From: Pseudomonadota bacterium
GTDB taxonomy: Bacteria > Pseudomonadota > Gammaproteobacteria > Competibacterales > Competibacteraceae
Direction: 5' to 3'
Length of the DNA: 64,000 bases
Assembly (NCBI GenBank): GCA_030917925.1
Contig: JAUPTV010000232.1
Coordinates: 7,082 to 71,081 of the forward strand
Positions 12,881-26,462 of the stretch are shown one piece after another (the stretch's first letter is position 1; the number at the start of each line of letters is the position of its first letter). The position numbers were made by a program, and so were the translations under genes. The notes under the pieces are model-generated. The model was not told the origin of the DNA, did not search any database, and was given only the letters and a program-made list of their open reading frames with translations.

Positions 12881-15481
12881 ATGCGTATGGACAAACTGAC
12901 GAACAAGTTTCAACAGGCCCTGAGTGACGCCCAAAGTCTGGCGGTCGGCCGGGATCATCAATTCATCGAACCGACGCATGTCCTGGCGGCGCTCCTCGAT
13001 CAGGAAGGCGGCACGGTGCGGCCCCTGCTCGCTCAGGCCGATGTCAACCTGAAACTGCTGCGCTCGCAACTCAACGCAGCGCTGGACCGTCTGCCGCAAG
13101 TCACCGGGACCGGCGGCGATGTGCAAATCTCCAATGCCCTGTCCCGGTTGCTGAACCTGACCGACAAACTCGCCCAGCAACGCAAGGACGCCTACATCAG
13201 TTCCGAACTGTTCGTGCTGGCGGCGCTGGAGGACAAGGGCGAACTGGGCGCACTGCTGCAAAAAGCGGGCGTCACCAAAAGCCTGATTGAACGGGGTATC
13301 GACGCCCTGCGCGGCGGCCAGAAGGTTGACGACCAGAACGCCGAAGATCAGCGGCTGTCGTTAGATAAGTACACCATCGATCTCACCGAACGCGCCGAAC
13401 AGGGCAAGCTGGACCCGGTGATTGGCCGCGATGATGAAATTCGCCGCACGATTCAAGTCTTGCAACGGCGCACCAAGAATAATCCGGTCCTGATTGGCGA
13501 ACCCGGCGTGGGCAAAACCGCCATTGTCGAGGGTCTGGCCCAGCGCATCATCAATGGCGAAGTCCCGGAGGGTTTGAAAAGCAAGCGGGTCTTGGCGCTG
13601 GACATGGGTTCGTTGATCGCCGGTGCCAAGTTTCGCGGCGAATTCGAGGAACGGCTCAAGGCGGTGCTGAAAGACCTGTCCAAGCAGGAAGGGCAAATTA
13701 TCCTGTTCATCGATGAGCTGCACACCATGGTCGGCGCGGGCAAGGCCGAAGGCGCGATGGACGCCGGTAATATGCTCAAACCGGCGCTGGCGCGGGGCGA
13801 ACTGCACTGCATCGGCGCGACGACGCTGGATGAATACCGCAAGTATGTCGAAAAGGACGCGGCGCTGGAGCGGCGCTTTCAAAAAGTGCTGGTCAACGAG
13901 CCGAGCGTCGAGGACACCATCGCTATTCTGCGCGGGTTGAATGAGCGCTACGAAGTGCATCACGGCGTGGAAATTACTGACCCGGCTATCGTCGCCGCCG
14001 CGATACTGTCGCACCGCTATATCACTGACCGCAATTTACCCGATAAAGCTATCGATCTAGTGGATGAAGCGGGCAGTCGCATTCGTATGGAAATCGACTC
14101 CAAGCCGGAGGAAATGGACCGGCTGGAACGACGACTGATCCAGCTCAAGATCGAGCGCGAAGCGTTGAAAAAAGAGAGCGACGAAGCTTCCCGGAAACGG
14201 CTGGACCTGCTGGAGCAGGAAATCGCCAAGCTGGAGCGTGAGTTCCACGATCTGGAAGAAGTCTGGAAAGCCGAAAAACTGGCGTTGAACGGTTCGGCGC
14301 AGGTCAAGGAGGAACTGGAACGGGCGCGGCTGGAACTGGATACGGCACGGCGGGCGGGCGATCTGGCGCGAATGTCGGAATTAACCTATGGCCGGATTCC
14401 CGACCTGGATCGTCGGCTGGCGCAGGCGACGGCGGCGGAGACCGGTCAATTCAAACTGTTGCGTAACAAAGTGACCGAGGAAGAAATCGCCGAAGTGGTT
14501 TCCAAATGGACCGGCATTCCGGTCTCCAAAATGCTGGAAGGTGAGCGCGAGAAACTGTTGCGCATGGAGGACGCGATTGAGTTGCGGGTCGTCGGTCAGG
14601 ATGATGCGGTCAAGGCGGTCTGCGATGCCATTCGCCGCTCCCGCGCCGGATTGTCCGATCCCCGTCGGCCCAACGGCTCGTTCCTGTTCCTGGGTCCTAC
14701 CGGCGTGGGTAAAACCGAATTGTGCAAAGCGCTGGCGGCGTTCCTGTTCGATACCGAAGAAGCAATGATCCGTATCGACATGTCGGAATTCATGGAGAAG
14801 CACTCGGTCGCTCGAATGATTGGCGCACCGCCCGGCTATGTCGGTTATGAGGAAGGCGGTTATCTGACCGAAGCGGTGCGGCGGCGGCCCTACAGCGTGA
14901 TCCTGCTCGATGAGGTGGAAAAGGCGCATCACGACGTGTTCAACGTGCTGTTGCAAGTCCTGGATGATGGGCGATTGACTGATGGCCATGGGCGGACCGT
15001 CGATTTTCGTAACACCGTCATCGTGATGACCTCCAATCTGGGTTCGCAGATGATTCAGGAACTGGCCGCGCAGGATAATTACCCGCTAATGAAGAGCATG
15101 GTGATGGCACAGGTGGCCGATCATTTCCGTCCGGAGTTCATCAACCGTATTGATGAAGTCGTGGTTTTCCATCCGCTGGACCGGGGACAAATCCGGGCGA
15201 TTGCCGATATTCAGATCGGCTATTTGCGGCAGCGACTGGCAGACCGGCAGATGGCTCTCGACGTCAGTGAAGCGGCACTGGACTGGCTGGGAGAGGCCGG
15301 GTTTGATCCGGTCTATGGGGCGCGGCCGTTGAAACGGGCGATTCAGCAGGGGCTGGAAAATCCCCTGGCGCGGCGGATTCTGGCGGGTGAGTTCGGCCCC
15401 GACGATACGGTGGTAGTGGATGCCGGGGGCGACGGGTTGACATTTGGCAAGCGATCCCTGTCGCTGACCAAAGGGCGCTGA
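12881..15481 (+). CDS. clpB: ATP-dependent chaperone/disaggregase ClpB
   Basis: 866 aa with two AAA+ modules ([15 protein letters not shown]; [15 protein letters not shown]) and a long coiled-coil M-domain between them. Confidence 0.96.
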
Positions 15482-15576
15482 CCTTTTACACCAGTCGCCG
15501 GATCATTCGGCGATAAAAAATTTCTTTCTATCGCGGTCTCACTGCGACGCTACCTGTCGCGATCCCCTTGTACCTT

Positions 15577-15610
15577 GGTCTCCAGTTCATCACTCAGTCG
15601 ACTGGAGACC
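15577..15610 (+). promoter_or_regulatory. perfect 9-bp hairpin occluding the Shine-Dalgarno of the AAA_5 gene
   Basis: GGTCTCCAG (15577-15585) pairs with CTGGAGACC (15602-15610). The 3' arm contains the only GGAG, 5 nt before the ATG at 15615. Confidence 0.35.
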
Positions 15611-15614
15611 TCTT

Positions 15615-18578
15615 ATGGCCGAATTCACCTCCTCGCCCTCGCCTGCGGTAAAGCCAGGCCTGCGTATCATCTCCTCCCTGTCCTCCATCGCCCGACCGCT
15701 CACTGAGCGCATTCGGGAGACCGGCAGTTATTCGGTAGAACGTGCCAGTAGCACCACTCACTGTTATGAACTACGGCTGCAACCCGGCATTCTGTCCAGC
15801 GATGTACAGAATTTGCTCAACAGTCTCCGCCCCTTTCAGCCGCCGATCATCCCGGACGCCGATATTTCCGGCGACATCGTGGCCGAGCTACATCTGGGCG
15901 ATCATCACCGATTTCGGCACTGGGATCTGCAAATCCATAGTGATTCACCGATCCTGACTGACGCCCTCCGCAAGGGATTAAACAGTCTACAGTTCGACAC
16001 AAAAACCCTGACGGAACACCACGGTCCCCAGGATCGTAGCCAGATTCAATTTGGCGGCGCGTCAGCCCTGGTTCGCCATGCAATTCAATGGCTGGCTGAA
16101 CCATTGGGCGTTACCTTCGCCGAGAATAAGGAGTGGGATGAACCGGACAATGACATCTATATCTATATCAAGGATCCCTCAACCCAGCCGCTGCCCCAGC
16201 GTTTCCGTGTGCTCATCCAAACCGATGCCCTGGAGGCCGCCCAAGAATTGGCGCAGCAACTACGGGAAGATGGATTCAGCGACATCGCGATTGAAACCCT
16301 GACCGCAGAAGCCGCCATCGACGCCAAATTGTTGATCGAAATGGGGCCTTTCGCTAATACCCCGTTTGCCCACCGCTTACAGGCGCGGACGCAACAGTTC
16401 ATCGCCCAGCGCGGCGTTGATCCCCTTCGCTATCCGCTCGATGTGGAAAACCACAGTGAGTCCAGCACCCGCCAGGCTCAAGTCACGTTACCACTGGCCG
16501 CGTGCATCGACCGCCGTCGTCCGGCGTATGATGGCCCCGACCTGGAACGCTTCGAAATCGCCATTCGCACCGATCAGGCCGGCCATCCCACCATTCAGAA
16601 ACTGGCCATCACCCTCCGCGCTCTGGGCTTCAAAGCCGTGAAAATTTGTAGCTCCAGTCCGAACCCGGACAACGAGGATTTGCCGGACCTGGATGCAGAC
16701 GACGACACCTTCGATATCGACGACCTGGCCGACCTGCTGCAGGACGATGACGAGACCGATCAACTGGTCGGGTTCCGCATCATCTGGAATGCGGTACAGT
16801 CTCACCCGGAAGTCGCTGACCGCATCCGCCCGATCCTGCATCAGGCAATGACCACACTCCACGCTTTGCCACGTTATCCCTTGCGGGAAGAAGAGGGGGA
16901 CGAAGACCGGGATTCGGTCAAAATCAAGATTGATTTTCCCGTTGAGGGCATTCAAAGCGGCGAACGACCAGAATCCCTGTGGTACCGCCTGCGTGTGGAT
17001 ACCCCGAACCCGGAGCGCCTGGCCCCGCTCATGGATGAACTCCACACCTGGGGATTCCTCGGCTGCCAGATCATCCAGGAACGCCGACCCGGTGGCCTGG
17101 AACCCACGATTACTTATGGTGGCGCACCCCGGGAACTGATCGACCGCATCCGCGCCAGTGTGCAGGAACAGACGGGGCTTGACCCGGAACCCGCCAAGGA
17201 ATGGGGAAGTGAGGATCGGGATATCTGGGTGCATCTGCCGGATCGGGCGCAGCAACCCACCGTCAATCGGGAAGCGGTGGCGGTCGCGATGGATCACTGG
17301 TTCCCGGAGCAACCCCCGATCCGCGACTTGATCGAGATCACTGCCAGCACCGTCCGGGTTGGCGAAATCACTCTGGAGCGCCGGCCTGGCTCTCATCATG
17401 CAATGGCCCCGTCGCGGGAGGCTTTCGTCCACTACTGCCTCGATGGGAATACCGCAGAGACGTTGCTGCATATTGCCGCCAGTGTCGTCCTCGGTGAACC
17501 CTGCCTGCTGGAAGGGGAAACCAGCACCTCCAAAACCAGCGCTATCCTCTATCTGGCGGCACTGCTCAATCAGCCGGTGATCCGCATCAATCTGAATGGC
17601 CAAACCGATACTGGCGAACTGGTCGGGCGCTATGTGCCACGGGCGCTGGAAACGGATCTGCCAATACCCACGGAAGAATTGCGCGAACTCGAAGAACTGT
17701 TAGAGCCGGAAACCCGGTTGATTCTGAACCGCGCCGCCGGGGAGCAGCGCGCCCTGACTCGCGCTGAGGTGCAGCAGGTCATGGCCAATGAACGGATGCG
17801 CAGTCATCCCTGGCGCTGGCAGGACGGTCCGGTGATTGAGGCGATCCGGCAGGGCTGGTGGGTGATTTTGGACGAACTGAATCTGGCGGAACCGCAGATT
17901 CTGGAGCGGTTGAACTCGCTGCTGGAGCGCGAGCCGACACTGGTCCTGACGGAACACGACTACCGCGTTTACGGCAATGGCGGGGAACCGATTCATGCCC
18001 ACTTCCGCATTTTCGCCACGATGAACCCGGCGGAATACGCGGGCCGTTCCATGCTCAGCCCGGCGTATCGCAACCGCTGGCAGGGGTTCCGGCAGGCGGA
18101 TAAACCCAGTGAACAGGATTATGGGCAGATGATGCGGTTCCTGGCCTCTGGCGCACAACCAGCCACCTGCCTGTTGGGGCAGGGTTATCAGGGCGGTCAG
18201 GGTCAACCCTCGCACCCAGCGCTCAATATCCCGGAATGGACGACGCGGCTCCCCTCGCTGGTACGCTTCCATGTCGCCCTGGAACGCGCCAGTGGTCAGG
18301 GGGACGGGCCAGCCCGGTTGGGCGCACGGCGGCGGGAACGCTATATCTTCACCCGGCGGGATTTGCTCAGTGTCCTGGATTATCTGGCTCGTGCCCCGGT
18401 GGTGGGTCAGACTGATCCTGATCTCGCCCTGCGCACCGCGATTCATCGTTACTACCTGAGCCGCGTCACCACTGGGGAAGATCAGCAGACGGTGTTGCAA
18501 CTCCTGGAAGCGAATGGCTTTGCGCCAGCGGGATCGCCTGAGCGGCGTATCTCGCACCCCCTGCCCAGGTCCCGGTAG
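15615..18578 (+). CDS. large protein: uncharacterised repeat-containing N-terminal region (~630 aa) + C-terminal AAA_5 ATPase (midasin/CbbQ/NorQ/CobS clade)
   Basis: 987 aa. The Walker A-like motif is LLEGETSTSKTS (17514-17537). Walker B is WWVILDELNLAEPQILERLNSLLE (D-E at 17871-17876). FRIFATMNPAEYAGRSMLSPAYRNRW is the AAA_5 sensor/arginine region. Confidence 0.75.
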   Translation: MAEFTSSPSPAVKPGLRIISSLSSIARPLTERIRETGSYSVERASSTTHCYELRLQPGILSSDVQNLLNSLRPFQPPIIPDADISGDIVAELHLGDHHRFRHWDLQIHSDSPILTDALRKGLNSLQFDTKTLTEHHGPQDRSQIQFGGASALVRHAIQWLAEPLGVTFAENKEWDEPDNDIYIYIKDPSTQPLPQRFRVLIQTDALEAAQELAQQLREDGFSDIAIETLTAEAAIDAKLLIEMGPFANTPFAHRLQARTQQFIAQRGVDPLRYPLDVENHSESSTRQAQVTLPLAACIDRRRPAYDGPDLERFEIAIRTDQAGHPTIQKLAITLRALGFKAVKICSSSPNPDNEDLPDLDADDDTFDIDDLADLLQDDDETDQLVGFRIIWNAVQSHPEVADRIRPILHQAMTTLHALPRYPLREEEGDEDRDSVKIKIDFPVEGIQSGERPESLWYRLRVDTPNPERLAPLMDELHTWGFLGCQIIQERRPGGLEPTITYGGAPRELIDRIRASVQEQTGLDPEPAKEWGSEDRDIWVHLPDRAQQPTVNREAVAVAMDHWFPEQPPIRDLIEITASTVRVGEITLERRPGSHHAMAPSREAFVHYCLDGNTAETLLHIAASVVLGEPCLLEGETSTSKTSAILYLAALLNQPVIRINLNGQTDTGELVGRYVPRALETDLPIPTEELRELEELLEPETRLILNRAAGEQRALTRAEVQQVMANERMRSHPWRWQDGPVIEAIRQGWWVILDELNLAEPQILERLNSLLEREPTLVLTEHDYRVYGNGGEPIHAHFRIFATMNPAEYAGRSMLSPAYRNRWQGFRQADKPSEQDYGQMMRFLASGAQPATCLLGQGYQGGQGQPSHPALNIPEWTTRLPSLVRFHVALERASGQGDGPARLGARRRERYIFTRRDLLSVLDYLARAPVVGQTDPDLALRTAIHRYYLSRVTTGEDQQTVLQLLEANGFAPAGSPERRISHPLPRSR

Positions 18579-18603
18579 CCACGACTTATTGAGGAGGATG
18601 ATC

Positions 18604-20478
18604 ATGCCCACAATTTCTGAATACGTCCGGCAACTGAACGCACTGGCGGCGGGGCTTTGCTACGATGCACAAATCCAGGTGGAAGCAACCGCCAGCCATG
18701 GGTGGTGCTACGATCCGGTGCGCCGGGTGATCCAGGTCAGCGCGAAAGATTTAGAACAACAAGGCCCGGTGTATTGCGCGGGCATCCTCGCCCACGAAGC
18801 TGGCCATGCCCTGATCAGCCGCTATTCGCTGTTCACGTTGCCAGAGTCGCCGCCGGTGGTCGGCCATGGTGATTTAACCCACCTGGCGTTGCTCAAACTG
18901 CTGAATGCGCTTGAAGATCCCCGGGTTGAATACTGGATGGCCCAGCGCTATCCCGGTTGTCGCGGCTGGTTTGCCGAGGTGGATGGTGCGACCGCCCTGC
19001 AACCGACGCCGCTGCCCGATGGTCTCCCGGACTTCCTGCGCTTTGGTGCGGAATGCGCCCGGGAATGGGTGTTGGACTGGCAGGCGGCCCCAGAAGCCTT
19101 CGCGGTTCCTGCACGCATCGCCGAGACGCTGGACACCACCCGTGCCGCACGCCGCCGCTATGCCGAGGCGATGCTGCCGCCGGTGACGCTGGACGCCGCT
19201 GACCTCGATCCGGCTTTGTTAGTGACCTATCCCCACCATATCTGGTCCCGGCTCAATGCCCCGGTGCGTATCCGCGCCTGGCCGAGTCGCTGGGAACAGG
19301 GTATTCAACATTATGCTTGGCAAGCCGCTGAATTTGCGCACACGGCTATCGTCCCGACCGGGTTGCGGTGGCTGGAGCGCGATGTTCAGCGCTTGGCCAC
19401 CGGTCTGCAGGCGGATCGCAACGCCTGGCGACAGGCTTTGGCAATTCGTGATCAGCGTGATTCACCCGCCGCGACCGCCTTGGTGATGACTATGCTGGCG
19501 GCGCATCCGGAACCGGGTGTAGCGCCACCGACCGGGCAGCGACTGGCGGCGGATGTGCTGTATCTCATGCTGGCGAAACTATCAAAGGAAGAAGACGATT
19601 GGGGGATAACCCCACCGCCTGCACCGCCGCCTCAAGAATTCCGGTACCAACCACGCCCGCGTGGCGCTCCGCCGCTGGAATCTGTCGATGCCTATGAGCA
19701 GGCGCGACTGCGGGTTGCCTCACAGATTGATGCCTTCACTGCCCAGGTGGAGCAGATTCTCCAGCCGTGTCGCCGGTTGCATGACCAGGCAGGTTATCCG
19801 AGCGGCTATCGTCTGGACCTGCGCCGGGTGATGGGCTTTGAAGCCGATGCTCGTTGTTACCATCAACTGTGGCGACGCAAAAATATTCCGGATCGGCGTG
19901 ATGCGGCGGTATTCCTGCTGGTTGATCTGTCCGGTTCGATGCAAGGTCCCAAGAGCGAGGCAGCGCTGCTAGGGACGGTGTTGGTGGTCGAGACCCTGCA
20001 TCGGCTGGGCGTCCCGCTGGCGGTTGCCGGCTTTCAGGATGAGCTGATTCTATTTCTGGATTTTGCGGATACGCTGGATGCGGAACGGCAACAGGCGCTG
20101 GCGTCGCTGCCGCTGGAAGTCAGTGGAACCCGCCCCGGTGGACATAACCGCGAGCGGTATAACGATGATGGTCCGTGCCTGCTGGCCGCTGCGGAACGGT
20201 TACTGGCGCAGCCTGCCAGTGATCATATTCTGGTGGCGATCAGCGATGGCCGACCGGAGGGCCGTCGCTCGAATGCACAGGATTTACATGATGCGATTGC
20301 CCGGTTGCGCGATGAACCGGGTTTAAGCCTGATCGGGGTGGGGCTGGGACCGAACACGGATCATGTGACCGAGTATTACCCTGATGCTGTGGCGGATGTG
20401 CCAATTCCTGAATTCGCGGAGCGCATTGGCGAGTTGCTGGAGCGAGTGCTGGTGGGCGGAATGGCGGAAGTGGGTTAG
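18604..20478 (+). CDS. vWA (CobT/NorD/CbbO-type) protein with N-terminal HExxH metallopeptidase-like motif
   Basis: The ATG at 18604 follows GAGGAGG (18591-18597). The motif is AGILAHEAGHALISRY (HExxH at 18793-18807), followed by LNALEDPRVE. The C-terminal vWA has MIDAS VDLSGSM (19924-19938), NDDG and ISDGRPEG motifs. Confidence 0.75.
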   Translation: MPTISEYVRQLNALAAGLCYDAQIQVEATASHGWCYDPVRRVIQVSAKDLEQQGPVYCAGILAHEAGHALISRYSLFTLPESPPVVGHGDLTHLALLKLLNALEDPRVEYWMAQRYPGCRGWFAEVDGATALQPTPLPDGLPDFLRFGAECAREWVLDWQAAPEAFAVPARIAETLDTTRAARRRYAEAMLPPVTLDAADLDPALLVTYPHHIWSRLNAPVRIRAWPSRWEQGIQHYAWQAAEFAHTAIVPTGLRWLERDVQRLATGLQADRNAWRQALAIRDQRDSPAATALVMTMLAAHPEPGVAPPTGQRLAADVLYLMLAKLSKEEDDWGITPPPAPPPQEFRYQPRPRGAPPLESVDAYEQARLRVASQIDAFTAQVEQILQPCRRLHDQAGYPSGYRLDLRRVMGFEADARCYHQLWRRKNIPDRRDAAVFLLVDLSGSMQGPKSEAALLGTVLVVETLHRLGVPLAVAGFQDELILFLDFADTLDAERQQALASLPLEVSGTRPGGHNRERYNDDGPCLLAAAERLLAQPASDHILVAISDGRPEGRRSNAQDLHDAIARLRDEPGLSLIGVGLGPNTDHVTEYYPDAVADVPIPEFAERIGELLERVLVGGMAEVG

Positions 20479-20513
20479 GCAACATTTTCAAAGTCGAAAG
20501 GAGCAATGTTCTT

Positions 20514-21494
20514 ATGGCGACTCATCCCCAGTTAATCTACAAGTACCGCATCGACACGGCCAGCATGACGGCTGAATATCCACCCCGCTGGCGGCATCCC
20601 AACAAGCAGCGAGTTTATGAAATAGCCTGTCCGCCAGGCAGTAGGCACCACGGCCAGATTCAGTTATCGCGCTGGTGTGATTTTCCGTTGCCGGGTACGC
20701 TCCCGAATACGCCGTCTGCTGTGTTCGAGATCAGCGAGAGCCTCTTTCAATACGAACTGGCCTTACCCGGAACTACGGCGTGGTATTTGAATTTTGCTCA
20801 TCATGACCTGTTTGTCGCTTACGGCAGTCCCTTATTAGCGCAAGATGAGTTACAAGTGGCCGAGCATCCGACCCTGGGATCGCTACGCGAGGCGTTGCAG
20901 GCGCGAAGCATTACGCCGCTGACCGTGGAAAACGGCAAGCCGACGCCCATGTTGATCAAAGGGATTGAACGACGGTGCTGTATTGCGACGGACGCCAATG
21001 CGGAACAGTTACGACCGCATGGACTGTATGGCAACCACTTTGCCCGCGCTTCGCTGGAGGCCGTGGAACGTGCAGTGACCCGGATTGATCCCCCGACCCG
21101 AACGAATCTGATTGCTATCGAAGCGCCGCCCGGCGGACAGGGCGCTTATACGATAGAGCAGATTTTGTACATTCTCAGCACAGCCTACAGCGGTTTTGCG
21201 GCCGCCAAGGTGGAAGCCGACGCGGATACGACGACCACGATCCATACAGGTTTCTGGGGTTGCGGCGCTTATGGCGGCAACCGTGTGCTGATGACGTTAC
21301 TGCAATTGTTGGCGGTCAACCTGGCCCAAGCGCAGCATTTGATTTTTCATAGCTTTGATGAGGCTGGGTCAAAAGTATGCCGAGAAGCGCAGACCCGGTT
21401 TAGCGAAGCGTTCGCGGGAGTGACGCAATTGTCGGCGATCATTGAGCGCATTCAGGCCATGAACTTTCAATGGGGCGTCAGCGACGGCAACTGA
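20514..21494 (+). CDS. poly(ADP-ribose) glycohydrolase (canonical PARG)-like macrodomain protein, divergent active-site loop
   Basis: 326 aa with SD AAGGAG at 20498-20503. NFAHHDLFVAYGSPLLAQDELQVAEHPTL parallels the PARG FANRFLGGGV..VQEEIRF..PEL motif. TGFWGCGAYGGNRVLMTLLQLLA parallels [23 protein letters not shown]. The human PARG sequence is from memory. Confidence 0.65.
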   Translation: MATHPQLIYKYRIDTASMTAEYPPRWRHPNKQRVYEIACPPGSRHHGQIQLSRWCDFPLPGTLPNTPSAVFEISESLFQYELALPGTTAWYLNFAHHDLFVAYGSPLLAQDELQVAEHPTLGSLREALQARSITPLTVENGKPTPMLIKGIERRCCIATDANAEQLRPHGLYGNHFARASLEAVERAVTRIDPPTRTNLIAIEAPPGGQGAYTIEQILYILSTAYSGFAAAKVEADADTTTTIHTGFWGCGAYGGNRVLMTLLQLLAVNLAQAQHLIFHSFDEAGSKVCREAQTRFSEAFAGVTQLSAIIERIQAMNFQWGVSDGN

Positions 21495-21544
21495 TGATGA
21501 TTCGTTATTTCGGACTGACCGGGTAAAAACGTTAGCCTACAGGC

Positions 21545-21967
21545 GTGGAAAAAGCGGATGATCTGCGTCATTATTGTTCAGAGCGGTTTCAGTCAGCGAG
21601 GTTTTGGCAATGCTTTGCTGATGTCCCCATTGATTTGCGCTTTGATCTGGTGTTACTGATGGGGAACGGGTTGGGGATTTTCGGCGATGAGCAGTCAACG
21701 CTGACCGGGTTACGTCAGATTCATGGCTTGCTGAATCCGGGCGGGGTTTTGGTGATGGAAACGGGCAATCCGTTTGCTCGCGGTGATTTTTTGGTTTCCC
21801 GGTTCACAATTAGCTACCGTAATCAGATCGATGGACCGTTCCCTTGGGGATATGCTTCGCGTTGGTGGTTGGAGCGAAATTTAGCGGTAACTGGTTATCA
21901 GTTAGATCAGGTCGTTCGGTCGTCCGCGCCAGGTGGATTTTTTATCGCGTGTGCATTGAAAGTGTGA
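21545..21967 (+). pseudogene. 5'-truncated class I SAM-dependent methyltransferase remnant
   Basis: A 140-aa GTG ORF retains the post-motif-I part (FDLVLLMGNGLGIF...LLNPGGVLVMETGNP). It lacks the N-terminal GxGxG SAM-binding motif. Only about 50 bp separate it from the upstream gene. Confidence 0.45.
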
Positions 21968-22054: not shown

Positions 22055-24175
22055 ATGACTGTGCAAGAACTATTGAACCTGATCTCTGGGGAAGAAGGCC
22101 AATTTAGAGGAAAGAAGTTTGACTTACCAAAGCATGATTTAGAAGGTGGTGTAGAATCAGGAGGACTATTTCTCCATCAAGCAGAATGCATTGAGAGTTT
22201 CTTTCAAGCTTGGCCATTAAATGGAATTATACATCTTCCAACTGGAGCAGGAAAAACTCGGGTAGCTTTGGAGATAATAAAACGGTGTAATAAAGAAAAC
22301 CCAAATACCAAGTTTATTTGGGCGACATACCCTGTTAGTCTTATCAGGCAAGGGATGGCAAGGTTAGTTGAAATTTCACCTAGTCTTTTTAGAGATTCTT
22401 CACTTCAAAGCTTTATTTGGGCTAATGGTAGAACATTGAAAAATTCTTTAAATCAAGCTGATATAGTTTTTTTGATGAGAGATCACTTGGGTATATTTCT
22501 TGAAAAATCTATAAAAAATAAAAACTCGCTTCGGAAATTTTTGAGTAATACTGAAAATCGTCTCGTTATTATTTATGATGAGTGCCATCAAATGGGTGCA
22601 GAATTATTGCGTGAAAGGTGGACAAAGTTTCAAGAAAATATTCCGCAAAATAACGTTTCAATTATTGGATTAAGTGCAACACCTTTACCAACTACTGGGG
22701 AAGGCAAAGATTTTTTAAAAAAAGTTTTTCCTGTTAAGCAGCAATGTAAAGGTATTTACCCACATCTTGAAACTTTAATTTATTATAGTGCAAATAATAA
22801 AGATTTAGTTGATAAAGAAATTTTGTGTCCGATCAATCTGTCGTTACAAAAAACAGGAATATTTGATATTCCGAAAGAAATTCTTGTTGATGTGATATGT
22901 AATTCTAGAATTATCTCTTCATTTCCGGAAAACTCTAGTAGAGATCGGTTGGAAGAATTTGCTAGACAATTTAATCGCGACGTAATGAGTTCAAATAAGG
23001 TTTTAGACTTTTTAGGTAAAACAATCGGAGATCATCTTTCTATACTTGGTAAAACTCTGGTATTTGTGCCTACTATTAATGCAGCAAATTATTTAACCAG
23101 CGTTTTTCGTAACCATCCCAAATTAGGTACAGGAAAAGTTTCAGTTGTGCATAGTAAAATAGGTGAAATGGAAGAGATAAATCAAAATGACAATAATCAG
23201 GATCCCTTTAATCCCTATAGGCAAATTGAAGCGTTCCAAAACTATGGAGATAAGCCCTGTGTAATGGTAAATGTAGGGATGCTTACAACGGGGTTTGATG
23301 ATCCAAAAATTAGAACAATTGTTCTTGCGCGGCTAACGTTATCCAAAAATTTGTTTTGGCAAATGATTGGCAGAGGTACTCGTGGAATTTCGGTAAAGGG
23401 TACCTCAGATGTATTTGTGATTGATCCCATAAGATTGACCGATAAATTTAGCGTTATGGAAGGATATTTTTATGGCATTAAAGCTCCTAATATTAATGAA
23501 ATTGCAAGTAAAGTAGTTGGTAATGAAATTTTTTCACAAGAAAGTTATCCAACTATTGATTCACTACCAATTCCAGGATCTGATGATAGCCGAATGCACA
23601 TAGATCAAACCGTTAAAGAAGATGTTATTCATGCACTAAAGACCTTCCTTGGAGGGGATAATGCTATCGGAGGAGATAATGTTATTTCAGTAGATGATTT
23701 TGTAAAGATTGTGAAGGAAACACAAGTCACATACGATGATAAAAGTGCAAGGTGGCAACTATCCAAAGTAGTTGATCAACAACAGTTGCCAGATTCAAAT
23801 CATTTATCTTTTTGCAACCATTTGATTAAAAATGCAGAAAACCATTTGAAGGCAGACTTATCTTGGTTAAACAACCATCTGCCGCTAGTATTTAATGAAG
23901 GAGGGATCAAGAGTTTTTTTGCGAGAGTTAAATTTATTGAAGCACATGCTGTACTTACATCATCGGATTATGATGAAAAAATAACGCAATTAATGATGAG
24001 CAGTTTGCCTGAAAAAAAGGCAGAAAATGAAATTCACGTTAATAAATCATCAAGTAACCAAAAACCTGAAAACATTCCACAATTAGTGAAGATTAAAAAT
24101 GAATCAATGATTAATGCGATGTTTTTTTCACATGATGGCATGTATTATATTAGGAATAGATCGACAGCAAGGTAA
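22055..24175 (+). CDS. SF2 (ResIII/DEAD-like) helicase; the 3' end runs into WD40 blade 1 and then frameshifts
   Basis: 706 aa with motif I LPTGAGKTRVA, motif II IIYDECHQ, motif III GLSATP and motif VI QMIGRGTRG. The last residues INAMFFSHDGMYYI are WD40-like. Confidence 0.8.
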   Translation: MTVQELLNLISGEEGQFRGKKFDLPKHDLEGGVESGGLFLHQAECIESFFQAWPLNGIIHLPTGAGKTRVALEIIKRCNKENPNTKFIWATYPVSLIRQGMARLVEISPSLFRDSSLQSFIWANGRTLKNSLNQADIVFLMRDHLGIFLEKSIKNKNSLRKFLSNTENRLVIIYDECHQMGAELLRERWTKFQENIPQNNVSIIGLSATPLPTTGEGKDFLKKVFPVKQQCKGIYPHLETLIYYSANNKDLVDKEILCPINLSLQKTGIFDIPKEILVDVICNSRIISSFPENSSRDRLEEFARQFNRDVMSSNKVLDFLGKTIGDHLSILGKTLVFVPTINAANYLTSVFRNHPKLGTGKVSVVHSKIGEMEEINQNDNNQDPFNPYRQIEAFQNYGDKPCVMVNVGMLTTGFDDPKIRTIVLARLTLSKNLFWQMIGRGTRGISVKGTSDVFVIDPIRLTDKFSVMEGYFYGIKAPNINEIASKVVGNEIFSQESYPTIDSLPIPGSDDSRMHIDQTVKEDVIHALKTFLGGDNAIGGDNVISVDDFVKIVKETQVTYDDKSARWQLSKVVDQQQLPDSNHLSFCNHLIKNAENHLKADLSWLNNHLPLVFNEGGIKSFFARVKFIEAHAVLTSSDYDEKITQLMMSSLPEKKAENEIHVNKSSSNQKPENIPQLVKIKNESMINAMFFSHDGMYYIRNRSTAR

Positions 24176-24953
24176 CATTAAGCTTTGGGATGCATTTGAT
24201 GGAAAAGAGATAAGAACATTTAAACATGGTGATTGGGTAAGTTCAGCATCTATTTCAATGGATAATCGTTATCTTTTATCTGTAGGTGATGATGACGTAA
24301 AAATTTGGATGGTTAATGATGGATGCGAATACCGAACCTTTAAAGGAGGATATGAAGAAGCGATGCTTTCGCCAAACAATTTTAATGTACTCATGGGAAA
24401 TCGCAATTTATTTGCATTGCACAGAGTAGATAATAAAGAAAAATTAAGGGTTTTTCCTGTTACTGAACCAAATAGAAGTAATAAAAGAAGAGTCGATACT
24501 ATAGCATTTTCACCAGATGGTTGCTATGCGTTAGCAGGGCAGAACTATGGGACTCTCAGATTATGGGAAATGGATAGTGGGAAAGAATTAGGTGTACTTA
24601 GACCTAAGCGTTACTGTTCAGTGCACACTGTAGTATTCTCATTCAACGGAAATTATGCATTATCGAGCCATAGCCCTGATGTAATACTTTGGGACATTAA
24701 AAATCTCCAAGAATTGCAAATTTTTAGAGGTCATTCTGATCTAGTCCGTGCTGTGGCTTTCTCAAAAGATGGTAACTATATATTATCGGGGGGTGATGAT
24801 AAAACTCTCAGGCTCTGGACAGTGAAAAATGGTCAAGAATTAAAAATTTTTACTGATGACTCTGATATTTTAGCAGTGGCTTTTTCACAAGATGGCCGTT
24901 ATGTGATTTCAGCAAGTCGGGATAACACAATAAGACGGTGGCCTGTCAAGTGA
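24114..24953 (+). CDS. WD40 beta-propeller (continuation of the helicase in the +1 frame; about 7 blades when joined)
   Basis: Repeats include GNIKLWD, DDDVKIWMV, GTLRLWEMDSGKEL, GHSDLVRAVAFSKDGNYILSGGDDKTLRLWTV and SASRDNTIRRW. There is no SD before the ATG at 24114, and 62 nt overlap the helicase ORF. Confidence 0.75.
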   Translation: MRCFFHMMACIILGIDRQQGNIKLWDAFDGKEIRTFKHGDWVSSASISMDNRYLLSVGDDDVKIWMVNDGCEYRTFKGGYEEAMLSPNNFNVLMGNRNLFALHRVDNKEKLRVFPVTEPNRSNKRRVDTIAFSPDGCYALAGQNYGTLRLWEMDSGKELGVLRPKRYCSVHTVVFSFNGNYALSSHSPDVILWDIKNLQELQIFRGHSDLVRAVAFSKDGNYILSGGDDKTLRLWTVKNGQELKIFTDDSDILAVAFSQDGRYVISASRDNTIRRWPVK

Positions 24954-25035: not shown

Positions 25036-25412
25036 ATGGAAGCTATTAAATTTGATGAAAGCTCTCAAGAGAACTTTAAAATAAACCCGCTACCGATCCC
25101 GCCCCCCGTTCGACGCGCCATCGAGAAACTGGGCGCTGACATAGCCCTGGCCCGCCGACGCCGACGCATCTCCCAAGCGTCACTGGCCGAGCGCATGGGC
25201 GCGTCCGTATCAACCGTGAAGCGGTTGGAGAACGGCGATTTGCGAGTACCATTCACTTCATTGCCCGGGCGCTCCACGTCTTCGGCGAAATTGAACGACT
25301 CGCGAACCTTCTGGATACGGCGGAGGATGCCATTGGCCTCGCGCTCATGGATGACCAACTCCCGCAGCGTATCCGCACCCGCAAGTCAACGCCTGACGCG
25401 GGGGCGCTGTAA
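25036..25412 (+). pseudogene. XRE-family HTH (HipB-like antitoxin type), frameshifted
   Basis: The HTH ISQASLAERMGASVSTVKRLENGD is in the track frame. From about 25250 the +1 frame reads HFIARALHVFGEIERLANLLDTAEDAIGLALMDDQLPQRIRTRKSTPDAGAL* (stop 25410-25412). This is the conserved C-terminus of this family (recall). Confidence 0.6.
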
Positions 25413-25457
25413 AGTCGGTACATTGAAGCGTGCAGCAACACCTAACAGCGGGCTCGG

Positions 25458-26462
25458 CTACCCTTCTCGCTGATAACGCTCCGCCAGTTTTCGCACCCGT
25501 TCCGCGAATTCCTCACGCAACGCCACCGGTTCCAGCACCTCCACCTGTTCGCCGAACCCCAGCAGCCACCAACGCAATTGCAAGGTATCGCGCACCATCG
25601 CCGTCAACCGGTACCGACCATCGGACTGTTGTTCCAAAACCTGATCCTCGGCCAATGCCGATTCACTCAAATGAAAGGCCACGTTGCCATCGATTAGCGC
25701 CGTGAGCGGAATCCACTCGCCCCTGATCATATCGAAGGCCCCGCTCTGGATATAAGCATCCAGATCGAAGTCCGGCGGCGTCCGGCGCGGCGTATTCAGC
25801 AACTCAGCGCTCTCAAACCGATGCAAAACCAACTGAATGACGTTGTCGTATTCCTTCAAACAACACACCAGATAAATCACCTGATCCCGCACCACCAGCC
25901 CCAGCGGATTGATCTCATAACCCTTGGTCCCCCCGGTTCCGAAACGCGGCCGGTAATGGGCGTAGAATCGCTGCCCCTGCAACAAAGCATCGTAAATCAC
26001 CGCCAACACCTCGTCCCGAATCGCCGGAGCCTGCAAGCGTTGCCCCCGTGATAGAACCCGGATTTGATCCAGCCAGCCGCTCAATTCCGGCCCACTCGCG
26101 CCCTCCAGCACCGCGTCAGCATTCTCTAGATAAGGATTGAGAAACTTCAGCACGGAGGGCGGCAACAGTCGGCGCAAGTGCAGATCCACAAATTTCAGGG
26201 TCAGGGCTGTGTGCGGATCCAGTCCGGGAATGTTCAATACTCCGGCGACTTTCAGCCAACTCCAGCCAAATTGATTCTGGTTGTCCGAACACCGCAACGG
26301 AAAATAGGACTCCAATTTGATCAAATCCCGCTGGATGGTGCGTAGCGTGACCTTGTAGCCGTGATCGACCAGTTTTCGGCGCATGTCCTGAACGGTGATC
26401 CACGAGGGTTCACGAGGAATCATCCGCAACATCGTCAGATAACGAATCGTCGTGTCCATCAA
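25458..26462 (-). CDS. wHTH-WYL-WCX transcriptional regulator (BrxR/CapW-like)
   Basis: 334 aa. The N-terminus IRYLTMLRMIPREP..ITVQDMRRKLVDHGYKVTLRTIQRDLIKLE is the typical wHTH. The central region YHLVVRDQVIYLVCCL is WYL-like. Confidence 0.75.
   Translation of the reverse strand: MMDTTIRYLTMLRMIPREPSWITVQDMRRKLVDHGYKVTLRTIQRDLIKLESYFPLRCSDNQNQFGWSWLKVAGVLNIPGLDPHTALTLKFVDLHLRRLLPPSVLKFLNPYLENADAVLEGASGPELSGWLDQIRVLSRGQRLQAPAIRDEVLAVIYDALLQGQRFYAHYRPRFGTGGTKGYEINPLGLVVRDQVIYLVCCLKEYDNVIQLVLHRFESAELLNTPRRTPPDFDLDAYIQSGAFDMIRGEWIPLTALIDGNVAFHLSESALAEDQVLEQQSDGRYRLTAMVRDTLQLRWWLLGFGEQVEVLEPVALREEFAERVRKLAERYQREG

Follow-up and report, generated by a model that had tools for sequence, protein, structure and literature searches.

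An AAA_5/MIDAS gene pair and its PARG-like neighbour in a gammaproteobacterial accessory island: one system or, more probably, two?

Introduction

What does a PARG-like gene have to do with an AAA_5 ATPase and a vWA protein, when the three lie head to tail in a bacterial genome? The question is raised by a stretch of 64,000 nucleotides (here called the window) from a Competibacteraceae bacterium (Pseudomonadota, Gammaproteobacteria; assembly GCA_030917925.1, contig JAUPTV010000232.1, positions 7,082 to 71,081), in which three consecutive open reading frames (ORFs) of the + strand, here g1, g2 and g3, are separated by intergenic gaps of 25 nt and 35 nt. The first (g1, 15615–18578) encodes an AAA_5 ATPase of 987 aa whose N-terminus is greatly extended; the second (g2, 18604–20478) a 624-aa protein made up of a zincin-like domain, a linker and a vWA domain; and the third (g3, 20514–21494) a PARG-like macrodomain protein of 326 aa. 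In the original prediction, made from the DNA letters and a list of ORFs, these genes were read as one operon, in which a dedicated AAA_5–vWA remodeller was joined by a PARG-type hydrolase as third partner and so coupled to the reversal or sensing of ADP-ribosylation.

The arrangement itself is as had been described: the ORF coordinates confirm the common strand, both gaps and the Shine–Dalgarno sequences of g2 (GAGGAGG ahead of its ATG) and g3 (AAGGAG), and a scan between the three genes gave 0 promoter-like sites, with terminator-like sites at chance level. The start of g1 had been misplaced, as nt 15577 is the first base of a leader hairpin and not an in-frame start codon, the true ATG lying at 15615. 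What the comparison with related loci points to, with a probability that we put at about 0.6, is that the locus consists of two independent things, a self-contained g1–g2 AAA_5/MIDAS machine (MIDAS, metal ion-dependent adhesion site) and a stand-alone PARG-like gene, g3.

Separate distributions of the pair and of g3

Homologues of g2 fell into 39 clusters in a word-indexed search and were found at 194 loci in a metagenome scan, and the g1-type family comprises about 145 clusters at 50% identity. (Loci from relatives carry L-numbers, such as L081 or L085, and the full-length-g1 subgroup is referred to as group A.) All nine g2 homologues that were traced to their encoding contig have a g1-like AAA_5 gene (883–1,054 aa) directly upstream, often with a 4-nt overlap; one g1-like copy, in L092, is cut by a transposase. 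Among the group A loci with enough flanking sequence, g1 and g2 stood side by side in 28/28 of those scored in the combined scan. The AAA_5 and vWA genes are thus a dedicated pair, as had been supposed.

The pair has no constant third companion: ORF clustering across 93 loci revealed no third conserved gene in group A, and no conserved three-gene neighbourhood, the absence of which had been named beforehand as telling against a three-part system, was found elsewhere. In other loci g2 is followed by a HicB gene, by a 45-aa ORF and then a gene for an RyR/TrkA_N protein, by rpsA, by a gene for an uncharacterised protein of 146 aa, or by a gene transcribed in the opposite direction. Nor do genes for possible clients (cobN, norCB, Rubisco or another metalloenzyme) occur in the island that contains the window's copy, or recur in the related loci. 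The g1–g2 pair is a rare, patchily distributed module, often found in accessory islands or beside integrases.

A distant subgroup (L143–L172) has a different layout, exemplified by L155 (7788–12604), where a zincin-vWA gene (769 aa), a gene for a conserved 136-aa protein and a 690-aa AAA_5 gene follow one another in this order. The AAA_5 protein of this subgroup is short and has a canonical GK P-loop, the hosts are of low guanine-plus-cytosine (GC) content, and a reverse-transcriptase-like gene lies near about ten of the loci. The combination of a zincin-vWA protein with an AAA_5 ATPase is therefore broader than the g1-type family.

The distribution of g3 is quite another one. Its homologues make up more than 1,900 protein clusters, at 44–59% identity, from Cyanobacteria, Planctomycetota, Chloroflexota, Acidobacteriota, Geobacter, Thiomargarita and others. 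A genome scan for its relatives gave 367 loci, and among the best 80 of these, 0/80 had a relative of g1 or g2 (tblastn E<1e-5, up to 10 kb of flank). ORF clustering over the same 80 loci revealed no conserved neighbour of any kind; the candidates that it raised were antisense shadow ORFs and genes that adjoin g3 relatives in the Microcoleus/Tychonema lineage only. Conversely, among 92 g2-bearing loci, g3 follows g2 only in L093 (g2 92% identical to that of the window) and L085 (84%), L094 and L085 being the same contig. The adjacency of g3 and g2 is therefore confined to the lineage of the window, and the proposal of g3 as third partner loses its comparative basis.

A variable slot after g2

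How, then, did g3 come to lie directly after g2? The junctions in the closest relatives are informative. In L093, a toxin–antitoxin pair (668 nt, encoding proteins of 72 aa and 117 aa) lies between g2 and the Shine–Dalgarno sequence and ATG of g3. (The pair occupies L093 5629–6179, and its 117-aa protein is RelE/ParE-like, with the motif GYRLIY...ILVTIYSKSDQ.) In L086, in which g1 is 66% and g2 71% identical to the window's, the g2–g3 leader, Shine–Dalgarno sequence and ATG are retained and the g3 ORF is precisely absent: the retained ATG immediately precedes ATTTCGGGCTGACCGGGTGAAAACG, the same 25-nt motif that is found in the window just past the g3 stop codon (ATTTCGGACTGACCGGGTAAAAACG, 21507–21531, + strand), where it marks the downstream boundary of the insertion or deletion of g3. 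The motif has one copy in the window, and its only other copy among the 92 loci is that of L086 (6755–6779). The idea that it might be a repeat of the repetitive extragenic palindromic or attC type was rejected: since it is single-copy and without significant structure (z=0.49), it is plain flanking sequence.

Past this motif, L086 has genes for HicB, UPF0175 and DUF3368 proteins and then a full methyltransferase gene. The window has none of the first three, and of the last it lacks the 5' part: orf140 (21545–21967, + strand) is the 3' remnant of a gene for a 227-aa class-I methyltransferase, and its product shares 86% identity with the last 139 aa encoded by the Methyltransf_25 gene of L086 (8171–8854). 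It is neighbouring cargo, outside the g1–g2 module. In L081, a HicB gene comes directly after g2. Across the clade of the window, a frame of g1–g2, methyltransferase/helicase-WD40 and WYL genes is constant, and cargo comes and goes in the slot after g2; it is because this slot is a variable cargo site in the lineage that g3 is found there. A recent transfer with a breakpoint after g2 was also considered and set aside, as identity to L086 is 83–95% downstream against 60–88% over g1–g2, with no sharp boundary. In sum, g3 is a common stand-alone gene that forms one piece of cargo in the slot after g2 and is no dedicated partner of g1–g2, even if in this genome it may be co-transcribed with them.

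g1: a midasin-like AAA_5 protein with repeated N-terminal modules

The assignment of g1 to the AAA_5 class stands. The Pfam model (PF07728) matches aa 713–821 with E=9e-17 and 61.8 bits against a cut-off of 22, and the Pfam bpMoxR model gave no match. The AAA+ module with its lid occupies aa 600–987 (17412–18578, + strand). Its Walker A sequence LLEGETSTSKTS (also given as EPCLLEGETSTSKTS; core GETSTSKTS) lies at nt 17514–17540 and its Walker B, WWVILDELN (W749...D753-E754), at nt 17859–17876, the two being separated by an insert (aa 675–735); a FATMNPA motif follows, and sensor-1 is N804. These motifs are conserved across the family alignment, and D753, E754, N804, R811 and R821 are invariant across 11 family sequences, down to 35% identity. 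The P-loop, GETSTSKT, departs from the canonical GxxxxGK[ST] and has the family form GxTSxSKT: the second glycine is replaced by Ser or Ala in 68/69 full-length g1 representatives with a detectable Walker A pattern. Judged by this alignment, the Walker A of g1 is a conserved variant rather than a product of decay.

When aa 591–987 were compared with the PDB by phmmer, midasin was found at E=4e-107 (the best single domain or protomer scoring about 80 bits), as against 5.5e-5 for NorQ, 1e-4 for CbbQ and 7e-3 for CobS. By this measure of sequence similarity the AAA domain of g1 is far closer to midasin than to NorQ, CbbQ or CobS.

The N-terminal region (aa 14–548; 15654–17258, + strand) is built from homologous alpha/beta modules, four to five in number and each about 90–110 aa long, hhalign giving a probability of 98.9% for module M1 (aa 99–192) against M4 (aa 456–548) and 98.1% for M2 (aa 193–305) against M3 (aa 306–455). 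For these modules, neither a profile search of the PDB nor Pfam applied to 10 diverse members yielded a significant match, the weak hints being to LytR_C (3/10 members), SPOR and Top7-like alpha/beta proteins. A Pfam match to Ribosomal_L12 was discarded as a clue to their nature, as it falls in a C-terminal extension that is unique to the L084 homologue and lies outside the shared N-terminal modules; L084 (4856–8020) is a g1 homologue from a metagenome-assembled genome of the Bradymonadia. A phmmer search with the N-terminal region found 145 clusters among 1.84 billion representatives, and since most of these are about 800–1,100 aa long and align from their own N-terminus, they probably share the architecture of g1. 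Between modules, aa 355–385 (16680–16770) form an acidic linker with many D and E residues; it is about 40 residues longer in relatives of 66–69% identity, and absent from distant family members.

g2: a gluzincin-like domain, a helical linker and a MIDAS vWA domain

The C-terminal vWA domain of g2 (aa 390–620; 19771–20463, + strand) is of the CobT/NorD style, as had been recognised. The Pfam CobT_C model matches it above the curated cut-off (E=1.9e-9) and matches 39/39 members of the g2 family, in 7/39 of which there are also weak matches to the CobT N-terminal model. The MIDAS residues, D441, S443 and S445 of the DLSGS motif (nt 19924–19938) together with D548, are invariant in 39/39 sequences. 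In profile searches the domain matched CobT (1e-18), the MIDAS domain of midasin (4.5e-15) and NorD (1.3e-5). A Foldseek search with the AlphaFold model of g2 (mean pLDDT, the predicted local distance difference test score, 84.6), one of the checks that had been suggested, likewise placed NorD (8.5e-10) and the MIDAS domains of Rea1/MDN1 at the top.

At the other end of the protein, aa 1–130 (18604–18993, + strand) form a putative gluzincin-like domain. An HExxH motif at aa 64–68 (nt 18793–18807) is followed by a putative third zinc ligand, E104, within the motif NAxEDPR, and conservation among the 39 family members is high (H64 35/39, E65 39/39, H68 39/39, R73 39/39, E104 38/39). An HExxH motif and a Glu ligand on two adjacent helices are the classical signature of gluzincin proteases, the thermolysin-type zincins. 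In the model, a three-stranded sheet leads into the helix that carries HExxH and the next one, which carries E104, and this core has a pLDDT above 90; after it come about 200 aa of helical structure, a disordered segment (aa 328–360) and the vWA domain. The Pfam model Zn_peptidase_2 reaches 18.2 bits over the HExxH motif, under its cut-off of 27, and Foldseek on the whole chain was dominated by the vWA domain and gave no separate match to a zincin fold.

g3: a divergent member of the canonical PARG branch

The only Pfam family found in g3 was PARG_cat_C (PF05028; E=3.2e-13, 50.2 bits against a cut-off of 26.3), so that the AAA_5, CobT_C vWA and PARG_cat matches that had been expected were all obtained above curated cut-offs; an NCBIfam scan of the three proteins added only weak similarities to GvpN, CobS and CobT. 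An AlphaFold model of g3 built from 117 sequences had a pLDDT of 94, and in the corresponding Foldseek search of the PDB the best 42 matches were all canonical PARGs, from human, mouse, rat, Tetrahymena and Drosophila. Human and mouse PARG were matched at E of about 2e-12, with a template modelling (TM) score of about 0.6 on the query, as against an E of about 1e-5 and a TM score of about 0.4 for the bacterial-type PARG of Deinococcus radiodurans.

It had been claimed that g3 carries both hallmark stretches of the canonical catalytic domain, and this proves to be half right. The diphosphate loop, GFWGCGAYGGN (G246–N256, nt 21249–21281; HTGFWGCGAYGGN), fits the canonical GxxGxGxxGG pattern and aligns with mouse PARG, and with human PARG over the same stretch. 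In the catalytic loop (YLNFAHHDLFVAYGSPLLAQDELQVAEHPTL; Q110-D111-E112 at nt 20841–20849), the canonical signature GGG-X6-8-QEE is not kept: the sequence is AYGSPLLAQDE, with QDE for QEE and without the GGG triplet. The catalytic loops of g3 and human PARG nevertheless share an ungapped register, (D/N)FA-x14-Q(E/D)E-x6-P-x-L, and Q110, D111 and E112, as well as the GxWGxGxxGG loop, are invariant across the 117 sequences of the g3 family. A profile search of the PDB with the N-terminal half of g3 alone, which contains the catalytic loop, gave no PARG match, so the identity of that loop was decided by structure prediction and manual comparison of the register.

The fold match, the shared loop register and the invariant QDE without GGG together lead us to regard g3 as a divergent canonical-fold PARG-like hydrolase, which on the predicted structure is probably active, and which probably removes ADP-ribose from some substrate.

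Comparison with known systems

Several known AAA+/vWA systems resemble g1–g2 in part. Midasin (Rea1/MDN1) provides the best PDB match to the AAA domain of g1, including the insert between Walker A and Walker B, and its MIDAS domain resembles the vWA domain of g2 both by profile and by fold. Midasin, however, carries both its six AAA modules and its MIDAS domain on one eukaryotic chain of about 4,900 aa, whereas in g1 there is one AAA module and it is g2 that provides the MIDAS domain; and the N-terminal repeats of g1, the zincin domain of g2 and the GxTSxSKT P-loop have no midasin counterpart.

In the NorQ/NorD, CobS/CobT and CbbQ/CbbO pairs, as in g1–g2, an AAA_5 gene adjoins a second gene whose product, about 600 aa long, contains a helical region and ends in a MIDAS vWA domain, CobT and NorD being the best solved matches of g2. 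The ATPases of those pairs are of about 270–330 aa and have a canonical GK[ST], whereas g1 has 987 aa, some 600 of them an N-terminal addition, and its P-loop is a variant one. The norCB, cobN and Rubisco genes that serve as clients of those pairs are not near g1–g2, and no HExxH zincin domain is known from NorD, CobT or CbbO.

The ternary MoxR–vWA conflict systems (Kaur et al. 2020, PMC7159879) are also similar, in having an AAA+/vWA dyad in accessory contexts with variable neighbours. Those systems have a VMAP or iSTAND protein as third component, whereas g1–g2 has no conserved third component, and their effectors are fused behind the vWA domain, on its C-terminal side, whereas in g2 the vWA domain is itself C-terminal and the zincin N-terminal. 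An analogy to the domain order of g2, but one of architecture only, is provided by the CLCA proteins, in which an N-terminal HExxH metalloprotease precedes a MIDAS vWA domain in one chain (PMC10669480; bioRxiv 10.1101/2025.10.18.683246); unlike g2, CLCA proteins are secreted, self-cleaving and eukaryotic, and have no AAA+ partner.

As for g3, it resembles canonical PARG (PF05028) in its fold, in its diphosphate loop (GxWGCGAxGG) and in the register of its catalytic loop. Canonical PARG has a eukaryotic accessory domain, QEE and GGG; g3 has no accessory domain, QDE and no GGG, and its family, unlike the eukaryotic-type canonical PARG, is bacterial and widespread. The bacterial-type PARG (DUF2263; Thermomonospora curvata, D. 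radiodurans) has in common with it that it is a macrodomain hydrolase found in bacteria, but is a much weaker structural match. On the strength of the model, g3 belongs to the canonical-type branch and not to the DUF2263 type, which is the only PARG that two reviews of ADP-ribosylation in bacteria mention there (PMC4245714, PMC8120803).

A proposed machine and its alternatives

By analogy with these systems, g1–g2 is most likely an ATP-driven remodelling or protease pair. In NorQD, the ATPase ring takes up a finger of the vWA protein in its pore and twists the linker of NorD (PMC13036017). Similarly, g1 would form a hexameric ring on which the vWA/MIDAS domain of g2 docks (with midasin as a second analogy), and hydrolysis of ATP by g1 would pull or twist the long helical linker of g2. 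This motion might control the gluzincin-like domain of g2, or remodel a client held at the MIDAS site, while the repeated N-terminal modules of g1 would be a likely platform for binding a client or signal. The output would most likely be the regulated proteolysis or remodelling of a client. Degradation systems combining MoxR, vWA and peptidase components have been proposed earlier, and form a conceptual precedent (PMC3495828).

Some points weigh against our view of the locus as a self-contained pair beside a stand-alone gene. Within the lineage of the window, g3 does come after g2 on the same strand in all three contigs, so a functional link specific to that lineage is conceivable, and the adjacency analysis is blind to g3 homologues encoded elsewhere in genomes that have g1–g2. 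The zincin call on g2 rests on motifs, a below-threshold Pfam match and a predicted fold, and the lack of the second glycine in Walker A means that ATPase activity of g1 is not assured.

Might the three genes nevertheless constitute one system, with g3 linking an AAA_5/vWA remodeller to the sensing or reversal of ADP-ribosylation? The common strand, the short gaps, the Shine–Dalgarno sequences and the lack of a standout terminator-like signal between the genes would suit this, as would the recurrence of the arrangement in two related contigs and the occurrence of macro domains as effectors in some MoxR–vWA conflict systems (PMC7159879). Yet the linkage is restricted to one lineage, all other g1–g2 loci being without g3 and none of the 80 g3-family loci having a relative of g1 or g2; a toxin–antitoxin pair splits g2 from g3 in L093; L086 has an intact g1–g2 with g3 exactly missing; and there is no ADP-ribosyltransferase in the window's island (about 15.5–26.5 kb), an absence that the original prediction had noted for the immediate surroundings together with that of Rubisco, nitric oxide reductase and cobalamin clients. 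The comparative data have already largely refuted this three-component system, and we hold it to be highly improbable. A different role for g3 would follow if g1–g2 and the variable slot were a defence module with swappable cargo, g3 providing, for example, immunity against ADP-ribosylating toxins. The rarity and patchiness of g1–g2 and its variable contexts, which include integrase/AlpA, IS605 TnpB, STAND NTPases, DUF4062, toxin–antitoxin genes and a WYL-WCX regulator, are in keeping with this, and in the window's clade the ends of the g1–g2 ... WYL block are constant while the content between them changes. But a PADLOC-DB 2.0 scan matched none of g1, g2 and g3 to any defence protein model at E<=0.1, distant members adjoin housekeeping genes (rpsA, sigma-70, pdxA) or opposite-strand transporters, and the inserted toxin–antitoxin pairs are self-contained elements rather than effectors; we think such a module improbable.

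The pair might instead be a metal-insertion (chelatase-type) chaperone like CobST or NorQD, with its client encoded elsewhere and the HExxH...E residues holding a metal for delivery. The closest solved relatives of the vWA domain, CobT and NorD, are indeed metal-insertion factors (PMC13036017), and the weak CobT N-terminal matches in 7/39 family members point the same way. Against this, the pair has no recurrent neighbour among metalloenzyme clients (cobN, norCB, Rubisco or another), the AAA domain of g1 is much nearer to that of midasin than to CobS or NorQ, and HExxH...NAxEDPR on two adjacent helices has the form of a gluzincin protease; chaperoning of this kind seems distinctly improbable. 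Returning to the view of g1–g2 as a self-contained machine, one may speculate further that it is a single-module midasin-like ring with a linker-gated zinc protease on its MIDAS partner and with sensing by the g1 repeats, that it serves as a mobile conflict or quality-control system, and that it represents the bacterial lineage closest to the ancestor of midasin; taken as a whole, this is an unlikely extension, offered tentatively.

Leader, flanks and the remainder of the island

The leader of g1 contains an 11-bp hairpin (15577–15610, + strand; arms GGTCTCCAGTT and GACTGGAGACC, 12-nt loop), with the g1 Shine–Dalgarno sequence, GGAG (15604–15607), inside its 3' arm. It is kept in five related loci, with one compensatory A–U to G–C change and one G–U change, and could be an element controlling translation or RNA stability. 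A second, small palindrome, GCGAC-N7-GTCGC, lies at 15544–15560, 3' of a conserved tract (AAAATTTT); it is invariant in the five related loci and so provides no covariation evidence, and may be an operator or a stem-loop.

Upstream of g1 the window contains the housekeeping genes lepA, lepB, rnc, era, recO and clpB. In the window (where it occupies 12881–15481) and in L093, clpB lies between recO and g1, and L085 has a 76-aa ORF instead, so the upstream edge of the g1–g2 block also varies among close relatives. An accessory stretch with helicase-WD40, XRE and WYL genes had been discerned beyond g3, and it corresponds to an island of about 15.5–26.5 kb between clpB and thiC, the order 3' of g3 being the 140-aa ORF, helicase, WD40 ORF, XRE helix-turn-helix gene, minus-strand WYL-WCX gene and thiC. 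The helicase ORF (ResIII/DEAD, 706 aa) and the WD40 ORF (279 aa), at 22055–24953, overlap by 62 nt and correspond to a single fused helicase-WD40 protein of 972 aa in L086 (77% and 74% identity), so the window's copy is probably frameshifted; the segment has a GC content of 34%, against about 58% elsewhere, and PADLOC gave for it only partial similarity to PbeA and to Cas3-type helicases. The XRE-type gene and the convergent WYL-WCX regulator (25036–26462) form the closing end of the island, in an arrangement that we take to resemble BrxR/CapW-type regulators of defence islands. In L081, too, the corresponding island ends in a WYL gene, which is 76% identical to that of the window.

Concluding remarks

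The comparative data remove the false lead of an ADP-ribose-linked remodeller, and the novelty that is left is of two kinds: an uncharacterised g1–g2 family of the AAA_5/MIDAS class, and an unstudied bacterial family of canonical-fold PARG-like proteins with an invariant QDE. The g1–g2 family joins elements not known together, namely an AAA domain resembling that of midasin, with a conserved non-canonical P-loop, a vWA domain of the MIDAS type and a gluzincin-like domain. If active, the pair would extend the paradigm of NorQD, CobST and midasin from metal insertion and the release of ribosome factors to gated proteolysis, and would provide a tractable bacterial model of midasin-type force transmission.

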